Below are positions 36,001 through 42,000 of a stretch of 64,000 bases of DNA, piece after piece; positions within the stretch are counted from its first letter, which is position 1, and the number at the start of each line of letters is the position of its first letter. Source of the DNA: a virus (taxonomy: Duplodnaviria > Heunggongvirae > Uroviricota > Caudoviricetes); the IMG/VR virus record IMGVR_UViG_2728369393_000007, one strand, 5' to 3'. The position numbers were made by a program.

Positions 36001-39000
36001 CTTGATTAGGGCTGTGTCCACATTACGTAGGTAGGATCACCCCACAGGCACCACATGTCATGCATGGATTAGGATTGAATGATAAATCGTAAAGAAAACT
36101 GCAACACCTCGCGTGTAGCACCTGGTTAGCGAACTTTCGAAAGTACGAGTATTGTATGATTTCCAGCAGTTATCAATTTTACGTATTAATCAGTGAATCA
36201 ACAACTCGTCAGCAGACTCTCTTTGTTGTGGAATTTTTTGGAACGTGTATAGGGCAGAAATTTTTGTTTTGGGACATGGTTGGGACGCCGTAGTACATAC
36301 GAACTCTGCCGAATAACGTATGATATTATTTTTTAATCTCTTGGAATACATTATAGAAACAGAATGCTCTTGGGCGATTTTTAGTGATTGTTTAAATAGC
36401 CCTGTCATGCAGTTAATGTGACGGCAACTACCACTAAAACAACTGATATTTAAAGATATTATTTCAGAGTCTGGCTCTATGGGGCATGTATGGGACACTC
36501 TCCGTCAACTGCTTATTGAGTAGTTCTATTTGCCCGATATTGTTATCTTTCATCCATGCTCCGTAAACGTTGAATACCATTTGTGCATTTGCATGGCCCA
36601 TTTGGTTTGCTATGAAGCTTGGATTCGCTCCTGCCGATAATGCCCAGCAGGCATAAGTATGCCTAGACTGATAGGCTTTTCTGTGCCGCAGTCCTGCTCG
36701 CCTTAATGCAGATGCCCAGGAATCTCTGATGGAATCTGCTTTATAGTGGTGACCGACTTGCTGGCATTTTTTTACCAGTTGCGGATTAAAAACAAACGTG
36801 CATTCATGGCGTGCGGTGCGACCGAACTCCCGAAGCTTGACGTCAATTTGATACTGAGGGCCAAGTCTTGTCATTTCAGCCTGGCTTTTCAGGGCATCAA
36901 CAGCTGGTTGAACAAGATGAATAACACGATCAGTTCCCGCTTCTGTTTTTGGTAGAGTGAACTCCCCGAGTTTTGTATAATTACGACGGATAGTCATTGT
37001 TTTAGCTTTTAAATCAATATCCTCCCAGGCGAGAGATATTAGCTCACCGTGACGAATGCCTGTGTATACTGCTAAGGACCACAGGTTTTTTGTTTGTTGA
37101 TGGTGACAGGCATCAATAAAACGAATAAATTCGTCACGTGTGAGCGGATCTGGTTCTGTTCTGGATCTCTTTAATGGTGTCAGGCCGTTAAATGGGTTTG
37201 ACACGATATAGCCGTTATCAGCCGCAAATTGAAACATTCCTGCAATTGTCGTCATGTAGTAATTAACCGTAACTACTGACCTCCCTTTAATCGGCGTTGT
37301 TTTTCCGTTAGAAAGATTATGATACCCGGTCAATAAATCTTTCCTGATAAACAGTAAATCTTCCTTTGTTACCGACGAAGCAAGACGTTTTTCCCCTATG
37401 CGAGGAAGCATGTTTCTCACCACGGATTGATACCGACTGAATGCATTACTTCCTATCTCAATTTTCTTAAGGTCCAACCATTTTTCCGAAAGTGCCTTAA
37501 CGGTTATCTCTCTTTTTCCCAGACCAAAGTGTTTCAGGTTAGGGGAATTAGGGAACTGCGCGGCGTAGTCGAAACTCCCCATTCTGATTGCAAAACAAAC
37601 AGAAGTGCGAAGCTCACCAGCGATCTTCCGGTTTTTGGCGGTGTCAGGAACACCGAGGTTTTCTCTGACACGTTTGCCATTATAGTGAAACCATATACGG
37701 AGTGATCCTCCATGGTTTTCAACGCCTGTCGGGTATGATGCGTTACTCATAAAACCTCCCAGACGTCCAGGAGCATTAACAGGTTAACCGGAACTTGCAT
37801 TTTTGGCACCTGGTTGTTTCTGGTTTTCGATCCATCGCATAATTTCTTCGATGTTGTACAGGCATTCACTGTAATGCCCGGATCACCTTCTACAGCGTAA
37901 TGGCGGTATTCTTTTCCCTGCATCCATGACTTTCTTCTGGCTCGCTCGATGGTGCCAGGCTTTAGCCCTGTTGATGCAATGAGGACTCTCTCCGTACACC
38001 ATTTGCTGGGGGTTATCTGATAGATGATTGTCTGCATGCCAACCTCATAAAACTTTCATCCACGGCAGTGGCACCACACTTCAAACATTCGCTTCACATC
38101 TTCTGTACAACACGGTGTTGTTTATGCAGCGAACAATTTTTACCGGGTAACCGGCACTGTCGGTATACAGTTGTCCCTGATTAATCAGAGCGAACATTTT
38201 TTCTCCTGCTCTCTGAATAGTGAGAACTTCAGAGCCGTATGTTTGTAGCGGGTTCAATGCTGATAATTTCTGCTGAGATAAGCATCCCGGCAAGCCAGAG
38301 TTCCCCGGACAGGTCTTCATCCTGGCATATCAGTTCGCCAATATTAATGGTGGCCATGATATCCGTTTTCCCTGTGCGCTCATCCAGGACTTCTTCATAA
38401 GGCAGCGTTGCGTACAGGCTTTCAATAGCGCAATTGATAACATCCAGTCCGGTCAGATTGCCGCCGACAGTAACTTCGAATGTTTCGCGGTATTCCCATA
38501 GTCCGAAAGTTAATCGAACGGTTTGTTTTGCCATGCGTCCGCACGACGTCAGATTCGGGTCATAGTTCATTATTTGCGGTTGAGTATTCTGGTTGTTCAT
38601 CTGATTTTCCATTAACCGGCGGTTTGCCGGCGTGTAAGTTATTTAATCTGGATAAATGGTGTATTGGCACCACTGGTCATGTATTGCGGCAGTGTACCGT
38701 TCCACTTGTTGATGGCTTCCAGCTCCATGACGCCAGGGTTCTGGCGCAGAGCTTCGCCGCGTAAACGAATGGCATCGGCTTCTGCCAGGGCTTTTGTTCG
38801 AATGGCATCAGCCTGTCCGGCAGCTTCTGCACGCAGCATGTTGGCCTCCGCTTCACGTTGCTTGACTTCCTGTTCGCGCTGCAGGGTTTTCTGGTTTGCC
38901 GTGACTTTGGCGTTAATGCTGTCGATAACGGTTGGCGGGTATTCCGGTTTACCTACATAAGAGAGGCTCATTACCTGAACGCCGATGGGGGTCATCTCTT

Positions 39001-42000
39001 CCTGAATGTCTTTAAGTGCGGCATCCAGTAGTTCAGACTTGCCGCCGTCGATAAATTTGTCGGTGGTCATTTTGCTGGCCAGTCGATTGAGTGCGTCGGC
39101 GATCTTCTGGCGCAGGTCAGTGGCGGTAATGTCATCCACGCCTTTGCGGTAGGTCTGAAACACCGTGGTAACTTTGGATGGATCAACTTTGTAGGCAACA
39201 CCGATGTGATAGCCGATGGTTGTGCCGTCACTCATCTGGAAGCTGAACGGCTCATCGTAGGTCTTCATTTGTTTGAAGGTTGGGAAGATGTAAACTTCAG
39301 TATTCCAGCCAGTCCAGTAGCGACCAACACCGACCACCTCACCGACGCCTTTATCGTCGCCCAGTTTATTTACTTTGATGCCAACATTACCGGGTTCAAC
39401 GCGATCGCAGCCGACAAGGCCAATGGTCGGCAGAACAATGGCTAAAGCAAAAATAATTTTTTTCATTTTTTATCCTTAGTGAAAGAAAGACCCTTGTAAA
39501 TGGCATAAATGCAGGGCGGGGTCAGAAACGCCAGTGCAAAGCCAGAAGTAACTGCTATCGTATCCTTCATGGATATAAGGAACGGAACGAGTAATCCGTA
39601 AATGCATGCGATAATTGCCAGTAAAATTACTATTGTGAAATACAGTCTCATTGGTATGTGGTATCCCGATATTTTTAACTGACAGACAGCGCAATAAAGA
39701 GAATAATGATTTCTGTTATTGTCAGTACTGTGGCAAGGATTAAAAGCAGTTTTACTCTGCTTAATTCACGGTTGTTTTTCATATAAATGGTTAGTAAAAA
39801 ACGGAAGAATTATATTCTTCTTAATATTTAATGTGTCACTGGCCTTCTGGCATACCATGAGTATTCAGGTCGTTAATCATTTCATCCAGAAGGAGTTCAA
39901 GCCCTTCTCGCCCCATGTCTGAAACAATGAAACCTTTATCTGGGTATGTAATGAGCATTTTCTGATAAAGAAACAGCGCTCTACCCATTCCTTCTGCCTC
40001 GCCGTATTTTTGAATTAAATTCCATTCAATATACTGCTGTAAGGCAAACCGAATGGGGCCGGGATATATCGTCATAACCCCATGCTTCCCGTTATATATT
40101 ACGGCGCGATCTGTTGTTCCGTGTTCATTCGGGACATCAATTGTGCCGTTCTTGTCTTCTTCTTCGTTGATGAATGTCGTCACATACAACCATCGCCACT
40201 GGGCAACCTTCATCTCAACCGGAAGTTTTCCCAGTAATCCTGCTTCGTCAGCTTGCGCGAGACACTGAAGGATACGTAAACCTCGCACATTAGGAGTATC
40301 GAATTCTCCAGCATCCAGACGGCGTATGGCGTCGTGATAATCAATAGTCATACTGCCTGTTTGTATACCATTGGCTGTTGCTTCAGCCTGGAATTCAGCG
40401 TATTGCATGAAATTTATTCCTCATCTTCATCCGCTGGTGCAATAACGTCATATCCTGCCTTTTCTGCAATAAACAGGAATGTTGAAAGATTTCCTACAAA
40501 TTCATCGTCATGAACATGACGAATTAATATTACTTTCCCGTTTTTGATGGTCAGCAATACTCTGGTTTGTTCGTGTTCTGCTGTTTTCTGATGCATTATT
40601 ATCTCCCGTATGCTTTACGCAGAAACAAGCAGGCAATATGCATGTGATTTTTCCCGTGTTGTGCAATAAGGCAAGCTGTTTTGTGTGATGCCTTATGTTT
40701 TATAAAAGTCATAATAAAACCTCCTGTGGATTAAGTGTGTGATAATCCCGGCGATTAAGCCGTAATATAGTATCTGGAGATGACTTGTTCTATTTAACTG
40801 GATAGTTCTTTTTCAGCTGCTGCTTCAGCATAGCAACGTGCAAATTCAAGAACTTCATCACCTGTTCTTTTTATTGCGTCGTTGTCTGACATTTGTAATA
40901 CGATAACTGCGCATAATAAATTATGGATATTGTTTGCAAAGGAATCCGGTGCCAGGCATAAGCCTTCATACTTATCATGGATATTGCCAGTCATTGTTGC
41001 TGCTCCTTTGCTTCTGATTTTCCCGTTAACAACCACATCAGGTCACAATTAAGCGCACTGGCCAGTGGTACTATATGATCAGCAGGAACTTCACAGATGC
41101 CGCATTCCCAGTCGTTTATGGGGTCACTGTAGGTATGAATCATGCGGGCAAGATCAGATTCGGTTAATCCCAGCTTTGTACGGGCGCTTTTGATGCGTGC
41201 GCCAATACTTTCCGCATGGACTTCAGTCGTATTTACACGAATAGCTGACTCGCTGTTTTTTTCACTTAGTAGAGAAAGCGGATCGCATCCCAGGACGTTT
41301 GCCAGGGGGATAAGCATGCTGATGGTTGGCTCGAACTCTCCACTCTCCCATTGCAGAATAATCTCTTCGTCAAGATCGAGTAGTCTGGCTAGTTCGGTAG
41401 TCGTCAAGCCGCAGGCTTCACGTTTGGTGCGTATGCAGGCTATCTTGTTGCCTGATCGGATAGAATGTTGTTGTTTTGTCGATGCGATCGCTAAAGCATA
41501 TTCATGAGTAAATTCTAGCACATCAAACCCAACCTCTTTTAATCGCGTATCATCTAGGAGGTTGAAGGTGCGAACAGCACTGAGCAGGTTTGCGATGGTT
41601 AATGCAAAAGAATCGAGATCTAAATCATCACATAAAACCTTGTTGTAAGTATTGAGGCTACATGTTTTTGGTGTTGTTTGTAAGGCTTCCATATCATCAC
41701 CATGCAATTCTAAGTTGAAGTTAATCAATATATAATTGATGGTGAGATATTATGTGTCAGGAAAACGACTGTCAATTAAAAATTGATAAACTTGATTTTT
41801 TTTGTGATGGATGACCAATAATTTAATTTAAAATCAATAACTAACCAAATCTGTTGATATTGAATGGTACAGATGAGATTACTTTTGACTGGATATAGAG
41901 CAGCGCCATTCCCTCTTTTTCGATGCTCCATGGCTGATAGTTGGGATTGTCTGATAAGACCATGATCTTGCTTCCAATTTTTTGAAGTCGTTTGACGTAA

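Follow-up and report, generated by a model that had tools for sequence, protein, structure and literature searches.

Among the known systems closest to the locus analysed here are HflK and HflC of E. coli, two paralogues with N-terminal transmembrane (TM) anchors that form an SPFH cage modulating FtsH. In both, a periplasmic SPFH domain continues into a long coiled-coil helix and ends in a C-terminal cap, an arrangement shared with the phage protein described below, whose SPFH domain is predicted to be periplasmic as well. However, structural alignments with the phage protein show ~16-18% identity, and the phage has a single SPFH gene, a predicted lipid anchor and a 60-aa two-TM partner. The SPFH-NfeD operons (QmcA-YbbJ, YqiJ-YqiK and archaeal stomatin-STOPP) share with the phage pair the two-gene layout of an SPFH scaffold and a small membrane protein, and the structure of the QmcA-YbbJ complex (PDB 8z5g), which is among the fold matches of the phage protein, shows the partner within the assembly. 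The phage partner differs in belonging to phrog_1130 and in having neither the NfeD OB-fold nor a protease domain; moreover, QmcA and YqiK face the cytoplasm, whereas the phage SPFH protein is predicted to be exported and lipidated. Over its full length, the phage protein is matched best in fold by prohibitin and erlin complexes (8rrh, E=5.6e-14; erlin, TM-score 0.62). These hold the SPFH domain on the non-cytoplasmic face of the membrane, but they are eukaryotic, organellar and hetero-oligomeric, with TM or hairpin anchors and no small two-TM partner.

The pair in the window belongs to PHROG 200, the family of phiP27 L05, and to PHROG 1130 ('membrane protein'). Annotations of homologues read 'SPFH domain-containing protein', 'lipoprotein', 'band 7 lipoprotein' or, mistakenly, 'serine protease'. 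Since PGAP uses the first of these names and PHROGs holds family 200, the proposal in the preliminary description of this DNA that the system is undescribed does not stand for the gene family itself; the family is annotated in databases (PHROG 200 and PHROG 1130), and its function is still only proposed. A connection of phage SPFH proteins with HflK/C, FtsH and lysogeny was raised in 2021 for Pseudomonas phages, in a paper that itself raises the objection of virulent phages (PMC8540360), and according to a 2026 paper the reason why a phage carries an SPFH protein 'remains unclear' (PMC13239085). We found no functional study of the phage SPFH family in the literature, in agreement with the earlier statement that no characterised prophage SPFH system was known. 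None of the annotations examined links PHROG 200 and PHROG 1130 as one module.

Position and gene content of the locus

The window is a stretch of 64,000 nucleotides of viral DNA, and its relevant features are listed in Table 1. As proposed before, the SPFH/two-TM pair is int-proximal, with the excisionase and integrase genes on one side and the repressor region on the other; PGAP annotates XRE/LexA-family repressors in a 99.8%-identical O157:H7 locus and in related prophages. Over the region, the DNA is 90% identical to that of phiP27, whose L05 is also 275 aa long. We read the pair as a mobile two-gene accessory module within the leftward gene string of the prophage, which runs from the repressor region to xis/int. 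The left part of the interval originally delimited (38081-38612) contains a DUF5406 gene, starting 26 nt downstream of the pair, and a truncated DUF4222 remnant, both of which are neighbours outside the module. A sigma-70/intrinsic-terminator scan detected neither a minus-strand promoter upstream of the pair nor a terminator after it, such consensus scans being weak evidence either way, and thus lent no support in this phage to a moron equipped with a promoter and terminator of its own; an annotated terminator follows the SPFH gene in phiEa21-4 and CcrKarma.

Table 1 Features of the SPFH locus in the window
Feature	Position	Strand	Basis or remark
Integrase	36464..37750	-	
Excisionase	37747..38037	-	DUF1233/phrog_539
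SPFH lipoprotein gene, 275 aa	38639..39466	-	ORF, Pfam Band_7, phrog_200, AF2, Foldseek
Lipoprotein signal peptide, lipobox L-V-G-C	39407..39466	-	Read from translation
ATGA, overlap of partner stop and SPFH start	39463-39466	-	Sequence read directly
62-aa two-TM partner gene	39463..39651	-	phrog_1130, E=7e-23
AAGGA Shine-Dalgarno of SPFH gene	39473..39477	-	Within 3' end of partner gene, 6 nt before ATG
35-aa hydrophobic ORF	39675..39782	-	Doubtful

The 35-aa hydrophobic ORF that had been reported upstream of the pair exists as an open frame, which is still open in four phiP27-like variants, but its status as a gene is doubtful. It has accumulated ~7 nonsynonymous versus 2-4 synonymous changes (dN/dS 0.5-1.2, no purifying selection), matches no PHROG, Pfam or NCBIfam family, lacks a recognisable ribosome-binding site and is not called by PGAP. 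Fraca, P88, P1-like phages and N4 have no such ORF upstream of the pair, and it probably lies outside the module.

Fold, predicted lipid anchor and two-TM partner of the SPFH protein

The 275-aa protein is a member of the SPFH/Band 7 superfamily. It matches Pfam Band_7 (PF01145; E=1.2e-30, 107 bits, cut-off 23.6) with residues 22-208, corresponding to model positions 2-176 of 176, and phrog_200 'lipoprotein' with E=1e-112. A signal peptide (residues 1-19) precedes the SPFH alpha/beta domain (~20-175), and the C-terminal region carries a conserved K-W-N-G-x-L-P motif, in which W255, G257 and P260 are invariant or almost invariant in homologues. The AlphaFold2 (AF2) monomer model (pLDDT 85.7) contains a long continuous helix at residues 178-242 and a second helix at 244-254. 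Foldseek aligned this model over its full length with prohibitin, HflK/C, erlin, stomatin and flotillin (prob 1.0), giving E values of ~1e-14 to 1e-8 for cage-forming SPFH proteins, and also aligned QmcA. As modelled, the protomer has the architecture of the cage and ring formers HflK/C, prohibitin, erlin, stomatin and flotillin, namely an SPFH domain, a ~65-residue helix and a C-terminal segment. The SPFH core originally read from the sequence is borne out by both the family HMM and structure prediction, and the long coiled coil by the model. Compared with the copies in phiP27, Fraca, P1-like, P88 and ETEC, the SPFH gene shows dN/dS values of 0.03-0.06.

By sequence, the nearest named families are HflC and HflK (E=3.5e-5 and 5e-4 for the two NCBIfam models; PDB HflK, E=1.4e-3), but the scores of 22.8 bits for HflC (TIGR01932) and 19.6 bits for HflK (TIGR01933) fall far below the cut-offs of 134.4 and 159.4. 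Since these equivalog cut-offs are not reached, a K/C pair is missing and a lipobox replaces the TM anchor, we rejected the assignment of the protein to HflK/HflC.

The N-terminus, MKKIIFALAIVLPTIGLVGC followed by Asp-Arg, contains a canonical lipobox (IGLVG-C20, conforming to [LVI][ASTVI][GAS]C) with Asp at position +2, which confirms the lipoprotein signal noted earlier. Cys20, the predicted lipidated residue, is kept in at least 90% of 76 diverse homologues, and the N4, Seunavirus, phiE125, Ab22, phiEa21-4 and Karma homologues likewise carry a lipobox. In E. coli, lipoproteins with Asp at +2 are kept in the inner membrane, and Asp+2 predicts this location for the window protein. Since other enterobacterial homologues have Tyr (N4), Glu (Seunavirus) or Ala (Symbiopectobacterium) at this position, inner-membrane retention across the whole family stays a prediction.

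The partner is a ~60-aa hairpin of two TM helices with basic residues at both ends. Its turn contains the motif P23-x-L-I-S27, with P23 invariant and S27 at least 90% conserved, which is located at the end of TM1 and predicted to face the periplasm. Translational coupling with the SPFH gene was correctly recognised at the outset: the two genes share the four bases ATGA, and overlaps of 4-20 nt occur in P88, Fraca, P1-like phages, N4 and phiE125, with short overlaps in six phage lineages altogether. The partner adjoins the SPFH gene in 59 of 65 bacterial genome loci (Enterobacterales, Xanthomonadales, Burkholderiales, Dependentiae and Bacteroidota) as well as in phages N4 and phiE125. In-frame fusions of the two proteins were found in ~18 of 150 distant representatives, and a single family, phrog_1130, was matched by 16 of 20 diverse partners. 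The overlaps, adjacency, fusions and common PHROG together argue for an obligate partnership. In Seunavirus, Ab22 and phiEa21-4, however, no partner was recognisable upstream of the SPFH gene, so the SPFH protein is apparently able to act alone there.

The expectation that the partner would be NfeD-like was not borne out. NfeD (PF01957) matched none of the 20 diverse partners even at E<=1, no Pfam or NCBIfam family matched the 62-aa protein, and its length leaves no room for a soluble domain such as the OB-fold; we therefore assign it to its own family, phrog_1130. Kinship with P1 Plp (125 aa) and Upl (63 aa) was also rejected, the BLASTP E values being 16 and 2.8, respectively. In P1-like variants, the slot between upl and ban that tciABC occupies in P1 is taken by the SPFH pair.

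In the fused homologues, two TM helices are followed by a third hydrophobic helix with a lipobox and then by the SPFH part. With an N-in topology, this position after three hydrophobic helices would place the SPFH domain outside the cytoplasm, anchored in the inner membrane. The family-wide lipobox, the topology of the fused forms and the residue pattern of the partner thus point to a lipid anchor and a periplasmic SPFH domain. This topology bears on the possibility that the protein is a lysogenic-conversion lipoprotein, expressed from the prophage in the outer membrane or vesicles and affecting the animal host through immune stimulation or serum resistance, or blocking an outer-membrane phage receptor as Cor and Llp do. 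The host strain of the window is an O157:H7-type pathogen, and there is a possible precedent in Pasteurella multocida PM0222, a prophage-encoded 'HflK/C-like' SPFH protein of 25-35 kDa that may belong to the same family, which occurs in outer-membrane vesicles and elicits TLR1/2 signalling, and whose deletion attenuates virulence (PMC9872710). Such a role is nevertheless very improbable, since Asp+2 predicts retention of the window protein in the inner membrane, the coupled partner and the fused forms point to an inner-membrane complex, and the carriers include Dyella and virulent phages that infect bacteria of soils and plants, with no relation to animal virulence.

Distribution of the module and its bearing on lysogeny and exclusion

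We found the module in 536 of the 5426 complete E. coli genomes and in 411 of 50,697 phage records. Many of the latter come from virulent phages, including N4, Seunavirus and other ~145-kb phages, Bruynoghevirus, phiEa21-4, crAss, Lak and phiCbK-like phages; P2-like and P1-like phages carry it as well. A syntenic chromosomal copy of the gene pair lies between blaI/blaR1-like and nrdAB genes in 10-11 genomes of Dyella/Rhodanobacteraceae. In related prophages and phages, the SPFH gene is absent, reduced to a frameshifted remnant or disrupted by IS1. The pair is accessory, not core, as had been surmised from its slot.

This distribution is difficult to reconcile with the role in the lysis-lysogeny decision envisaged in the preliminary description, in which the phage SPFH protein mimics or competes with HflK/C and, by modulating FtsH, changes the stability of a CII-like regulator. 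In its favour, no named family is closer in sequence than HflK and HflC, which also belong to the best fold matches, the periplasmic location predicted for the SPFH domain agrees with that in HflK/C, and the idea is in print for Pseudomonas phages (PMC8540360). However, the fold matches to prohibitin and erlin are just as good, and the scores against HflK and HflC are far below the family cut-offs as described above. The carriers, moreover, include P1-like and P2-like phages, many obligately virulent phages without a lysogeny decision, and Dyella with its cellular copy. The many virulent carriers and the Dyella copy rather suggest a general role that is not specific to lysogeny, and a tie of the phage pair to FtsH found no support here. 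We consider the FtsH-mediated role improbable.

A role in superinfection exclusion or envelope defence was also considered. The inner-membrane complex might stop the entry of incoming phage DNA, for instance if it sequestered entry factors of the inner membrane or hindered the formation of a channel. In an abortive-infection variant, the two-TM protein might be kept in the cage as a membrane-disrupting effector that is triggered by infection. Many of the known exclusion proteins are lipoproteins of phages or small proteins of the inner membrane (T5 Llp, Cor, TP-J34 Ltp, T4 Imm, P22 SieA and HK97 gp15); as with the phage pair, these are small proteins of the envelope whose genes lie in accessory regions, in temperate as well as virulent phages, and Llp, Cor and Ltp have a lipoprotein anchor, as is predicted for the SPFH protein. 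None of them, however, is an SPFH protein or related to it in sequence or fold. The pair itself sits in the variable early-left accessory region, and in N4 the gene directly upstream of it encodes Pfam GP17 'superinfection exclusion gene product 17', although this adjacency is one case. The partner resembles holins in size and topology (two TM helices, basic tail), but its matches to holin HMMs are at chance level. Known defence-system models give no support to the exclusion or abortive-infection system suggested earlier, as none of seven proteins of the region matched PADLOC-DB v2 at E<=0.01, and no tie of SPFH proteins to anti-phage activity was found in the literature. The stable syntenic copy beside housekeeping genes in Dyella is likewise atypical for defence genes. 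We therefore regard exclusion or defence as rather unlikely.

Possible role at the inner membrane

The reading that we consider most likely, though still tentatively, is that the SPFH protein forms a periplasm-facing ring or cage with a two-TM fence, which organises or protects the inner membrane during infection. The Asp+2 lipid anchor would hold the SPFH protein at the periplasmic face of the inner membrane, where it may oligomerise into the ring or cage. The partner, presumably made in equal amounts, would serve as a membrane-embedded 'fence', a part for which other SPFH proteins use their own TM helix, and its periplasmic Pro-x-Leu-Ile-Ser turn may dock onto the SPFH domain; the natural single-chain proteins would then represent a fused version of this complex. 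We infer cage formation, the 1:1 stoichiometry of the complex and its role in maintaining the membrane, with a monomer model as the basis for the fold. The complex may partition or stabilise a patch of the inner membrane in the infected or induced cell, so that the envelope and its protein machinery would be kept working until programmed lysis. The benefit would be general to the infection cycle rather than a lambda-specific lysogeny switch, and the closest alternative pay-off would be the exclusion of superinfecting phages at the inner membrane.

A broader proposal, which we hold to be unlikely on the present evidence, is that the pair constitutes a self-contained and very widespread phage envelope system, in which a minimal lipid-anchored SPFH cage is combined with a two-TM subunit acting as a fence or as a held membrane-active effector, and which provides superinfection exclusion or times the breach of the inner membrane. 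If this were true, the module would give the first defined function of a virus-encoded SPFH scaffold, and phrog_1130 would be the first SPFH partner family besides NfeD.

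Architecture of the SPFH lipoprotein

By both its domain and its architecture, the 275-aa protein belongs to the SPFH superfamily. It matches the Pfam Band_7/SPFH model across the whole model (E = 1.2e-30), and the AlphaFold2 model built from an alignment of 76 homologues (pLDDT 85.7) consists of a signal helix, an alpha/beta SPFH domain (residues 20-175), an unbroken helix (178-242), a further, short helix (244-254) and a low-confidence tail. Foldseek aligned this model over its full length, with a probability of 1.0, to prohibitin (8rrh, E = 5.6e-14), HflK/HflC (7vhq, 9cz2, 7wi3), erlin1/2, stomatin, flotillin, QmcA (8z5g) and the shoulder of the major vault protein, all of which build large membrane rings or cages. 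The SPFH core and the long coiled coil named in the preliminary description are thus borne out, and its assignment as a lipoprotein is supported by the N-terminal lipobox LVGC, which is followed by Asp at +2. The lipobox Cys is kept in at least 90% of the 76 homologues (31-95% identity), and the protein matches phrog_200, annotated 'lipoprotein' (E = 1e-112).

By sequence, the closest solved protein is HflK, at a weak E = 1.4e-3, and the NCBIfam scores are 23 bits for HflC (cut-off 134) and 20 bits for HflK (cut-off 159). Since the HflK match is weak and both scores fall under their cut-offs, the 275-aa protein is an SPFH protein but not an HflK/HflC orthologue. Purifying selection on its gene is strong: dN/dS is 0.03-0.06 against five other copies. 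The name 'serine protease' or 'putative serine protease' has spread over many phage records (GenBank LC567830 and related entries; AJ298298 for phiP27 L05). This label was rejected for L05 and the Stx-phage records, as Band_7 alone was detected and a protease domain was absent; a match to phrog_11227 'protease' is weak (E = 1.5e-3) and located in the coiled coil.

The locus and its neighbours

Six ORFs on the minus strand run from the CI/LexA-type repressor region towards xis and int (Table), an order that confirms the int-proximal slot proposed for the pair. The region shares 99.6-99.9% identity with phiP27-like Stx2-converting phages and 90% with phiP27 itself, in which L05 corresponds to the 275-aa gene. 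It is also 99.8% identical to the E. coli O157:H7 PV15-279 prophage that adjoins nleG and espM1. By identity with that annotated locus, these two type III secretion effector genes lie just before the prophage integrase in the window; a tRNA-Met/Lys/Arg cluster near the window start belongs to the other prophage.

A scan of the window for a pair-specific promoter or terminator gave nothing convincing. A strong sigma-70-like site (10/12 consensus) stands between the CI-like repressor gene and the double-HTH gene, close downstream of the former and close upstream of the latter. This candidate early-left promoter may transcribe the SPFH pair, which, judged from the layout, fits most simply into the leftward early operon.

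Table. Coordinates of the SPFH pair, its neighbours and the comparison loci
Feature	Sequence	Coordinates	Strand	Remark
tRNA-Met/Lys/Arg cluster	window	2210-2450		other prophage
nleG, espM1	window	32007-33428		effector genes
int	window	36464..37750	-	integrase; pair upstream
xis	window	37747..38037	-	excisionase; pair upstream
79-aa ORF	window	38081..38320	-	truncated DUF4222 remnant; sixth in transcription order
DUF5406 gene	window	38229..38612	-	fifth in transcription order
275-aa ORF	window	38639..39466	-	Band_7, phrog_200; fourth in transcription order
Identity to P88 (L003) and P1-like MH422554 (L004)	window	38672..39418		mature SPFH coding part
62-aa ORF	window	39463..39651	-	phrog_1130; third in transcription order
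35-aa hydrophobic ORF	window	39675..39782	-	second in transcription order
190-aa ORF	window	39836..40408	-	phrog_1515; first in transcription order
245-aa double-HTH gene	window	40991..41728		
TTGACA-17-TAATAT	window	41775..41747	-	sigma-70-like site
SPFH pair	P1-like MH422554 (L004)	3968-5012		between upl and ban
tciA-tciB-tciC	canonical P1 (L079)	17473-19300		same interval
GP17-family gene	N4 AlfredRasser (L005)	1907-2221		directly upstream of pair
IS1-like element	Shigella flexneri SFBU1023, E. coli ECMA0423 (L014, L015)	~5230-6000		between partner and SPFH genes
Partner-like ORF	Desulfosporosinus MAG (L072)	~6920		downstream of SPFH gene
Remnant and 59-aa ORF	E. coli E200086 prophage (L080)	2543-3052		slot without intact SPFH gene
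SPFH pair	Dyella spp. (L029, L031, L033, L038, L043, L049, L053, L076 and others)	~6000		

The start of the DUF5406 gene lies 26 nt past the SPFH stop codon. Of the 53 DUF4222 positions, the 79-aa ORF matches only the first 31, and it shares 92 nt with the DUF5406 gene; PGAP calls DUF4222 an incomplete pseudogene at the identical O157:H7 locus, and related prophages keep an intact 80-aa copy. DUF5406 and DUF4222 were rejected as parts of the module, as they accompany the pair only in phiP27-like prophages and are absent in Fraca, P88, P1-like and N4 phages. The hydrophobic 35-aa ORF, proposed as a further component, is likewise unsupported. It is open in four phiP27-like variants, among which about 7 nonsynonymous and 2-4 synonymous differences give a dN/dS of 0.5-1.2; it has no obvious ribosome-binding site, no family and no PGAP call, and it is absent in other pair-carrying phages.

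A conserved two-TM partner

The SPFH lipoprotein has a genuine and conserved partner in the 62-aa protein. Its stop codon and the SPFH start share an ATGA overlap, and the AAGGA ribosome-binding site of the SPFH gene sits within the 3' end of the partner gene, in agreement with the translational coupling suggested earlier. A two-TM gene (49-78 aa) overlaps or abuts the SPFH lipoprotein gene in the annotated records of P2-like P88, HK97-like Fraca, P1-like plasmid prophages, virulent N4 (isolate AlfredRasser) and Burkholderia phage phiE125. Among the 65 bacterial genome loci recovered with the SPFH alignment, a partner with the same motif adjoins the SPFH gene in 59; the loci span Enterobacterales (including Yersinia pestis), Dyella and other Rhodanobacteraceae, Sutterella, Cupriavidus, Dependentiae, Methylumidiphilus, Bacteroidales, Flavobacterium and Saprospirales. 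In the Desulfosporosinus MAG, the sole such case seen, a partner-like two-TM ORF with a P-x-x-x-S motif lies downstream of the SPFH gene. Since no recognisable partner was found upstream of the SPFH gene in Seunavirus NINP13076, Pseudomonas Ab22 or Erwinia phiEa21-4, the pairing is frequent, not universal. An IS1-like element (~770 bp), whose InsA-like ORFs lie on the opposite strand, has inserted precisely at the partner/SPFH junction in one Shigella flexneri and one E. coli genome, changing the partner C-terminus and uncoupling the genes.

The two proteins also occur as one. Among the best 150 SPFH cluster representatives at 50% identity, about 18 (320-390 aa) are in-frame fusions in which the two-TM module is followed by a hydrophobic helix, the lipobox and the SPFH part, and the phrog_200 profile has an 80-residue N-terminal extension beyond the 275-aa protein of the window. 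SPFH cage-former architecture, a conserved lipobox, translational coupling and a deeply conserved partnership that includes natural fusions together characterise the module.

The partner matched no Pfam or NCBIfam family; it matches phrog_1130, 'membrane protein' (E = 7e-23), as do 16 of 20 diverse partners, chromosomal Dyella ones included. None of these 20 matched NfeD or rose above noise for any Pfam family, and an NfeD identity was rejected for both small proteins, so that the partner is not the NfeD-like protein that had been anticipated. A holin was also rejected, the holin HMM matches being at chance level only. When 39 partners and fused N-termini are aligned, a single Pro is invariant and the Leu-(Ile/Val)-Ser after it nearly so; this motif lies at the end of TM1, ahead of a short polar turn. 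Each terminus has a cluster of basic residues, and by the positive-inside rule the conserved turn is predicted to be periplasmic, on the side of the lipoprotein.

Distribution and exchange of the pair

Of 5426 complete E. coli genomes, 536 (~10%) carry DNA closely related to the pair, at 420 chromosomal sites and at 199 sites on plasmids of P1-like size; the carriers include Shiga-toxin prophages, P1-like plasmid prophages and the pMT1/pHCM2 type. The SPFH protein was found by tblastn in 411 of 50,697 phage records (~0.8%) from phages of very different lifestyles. Among the temperate carriers are Stx phages, P88, phiE125 and SSU5/pMT1-like phage-plasmids, and among the virulent ones are N4-like Schitoviridae, ~140-160-kb enterobacterial phages (Seunavirus and others), Bruynoghevirus, the Ounavirinae phage phiEa21-4, crAss-like phages, Lak megaphages, phiCbK-like Caulobacter phages and jumbo phages. 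At E<1e-30 a whole-library search returned 206 SPFH clusters, and at E<1e-10 it returned 926. The pair has a conserved chromosomal setting in 10-11 Dyella/Rhodanobacteraceae genomes, flanked by a blaI/blaR1-like pair (Penicillinase_R and Peptidase_M56 families) on one side and nrdAB on the other, which indicates that a cellular, non-prophage version exists. The membrane metalloprotease-type sensor beside the Dyella pair may or may not be linked to it in function.

In phiP27-like prophages the slot is variable: the gene is missing in some relatives, a Stx1a phage shares the flanking gene only, and an otherwise syntenic prophage at yecE of E. coli E200086 has a frameshifted 331-nt 'hypothetical protein' remnant and a 59-aa ORF between DUF5406 and the upstream genes. 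This variation makes the pair accessory, as the preliminary description held. A ParE-like toxin gene lies near the E200086 slot. DNA identity to P88 and the P1-like phage (86-92%) is confined to the mature SPFH coding part, and the signal-peptide codons and partner gene, of at least two divergent types, are exchanged together, implying recombination breakpoints inside the SPFH gene. As P1-like MH422554 has the pair where canonical P1 has tciA-tciB-tciC, the upl-ban interval of P1-like plasmid prophages looks like a swappable accessory slot.

Possible roles at the inner membrane

In E. coli, Asp at +2 of a lipoprotein causes retention in the inner membrane. By this rule, the lipid anchor would keep the SPFH protein in the inner membrane, and the fused forms, independently of Asp+2, argue for an SPFH domain located at this membrane and facing the periplasm. 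The lipoprotein would oligomerise like other SPFH proteins, with the partner, produced in equal amounts, providing the transmembrane part of the assembly, and the complex may organise or protect the inner membrane of the infected cell. We favour such a general role because virulent and temperate phages both carry the module and because it exists as a stable chromosomal gene pair. The proposal as a whole is tentative, its chance being somewhat under even; its structural part, taken by itself, has a higher probability.

Superinfection exclusion or defence at the inner membrane, suggested by analogy, would agree with the position of the pair in N4, directly downstream of a gene of the Pfam family GP17, 'superinfection exclusion gene product 17'. 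No PADLOC defence model matched the region, and we consider this reading rather unlikely. That the module is a widespread phage system for envelope exclusion or membrane control is similarly improbable. The FtsH/CII modulation first put forward, by which the module would bias the choice between lysis and lysogeny, seems quite unlikely. A 2021 paper had already raised an HflK/C-like action of phage SPFH proteins, and with it the objection that SPFH proteins are found in lytic phages too (PMC8540360). A conversion or virulence lipoprotein, by analogy with the Pasteurella prophage protein PM0222, for which such a role was reported (PMC9872710), has very little probability; PM0222 is only a putative member of the SPFH lipoprotein family. 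P1 Plp/Upl was rejected as a homologue after direct comparison revealed no similarity, and since they are dissimilar, the P1 CRISPRi non-essentiality data (PMC10695390) do not apply to the pair.

A literature search for a tested function (SPFH with prophage, anti-phage or superinfection exclusion, and N4 gp17) yielded only genome-description remarks and the PM0222 study, and a 2026 phage paper calls the role of its SPFH protein 'unclear' (PMC13239085). Catalogue entries for the genes exist (PGAP 'SPFH domain-containing protein', PHROG 200 and 1130, phiP27 L05), and the family is not undescribed; we did not find the two-gene module with its own partner family, fusions and cellular Dyella version stated in annotations or literature. 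The feature is real and its annotation ordinary: within the SPFH scaffold theme, it represents a variant with a lipid anchor and a two-TM partner.

Genome annotations should handle the two genes as a single module and give up the 'serine protease' label. SPFH scaffolds such as prohibitin, stomatin, flotillin and HflK/C are found in every domain of life, but what most bacterial members do is unclear. The SPFH lipoprotein family is among the commoner phage accessory genes. If a function were shown for this two-protein, periplasm-facing complex of ~340 residues, it would explain why so many phages carry it and would provide a minimal, genetically tractable model of membrane partitioning by SPFH cages.
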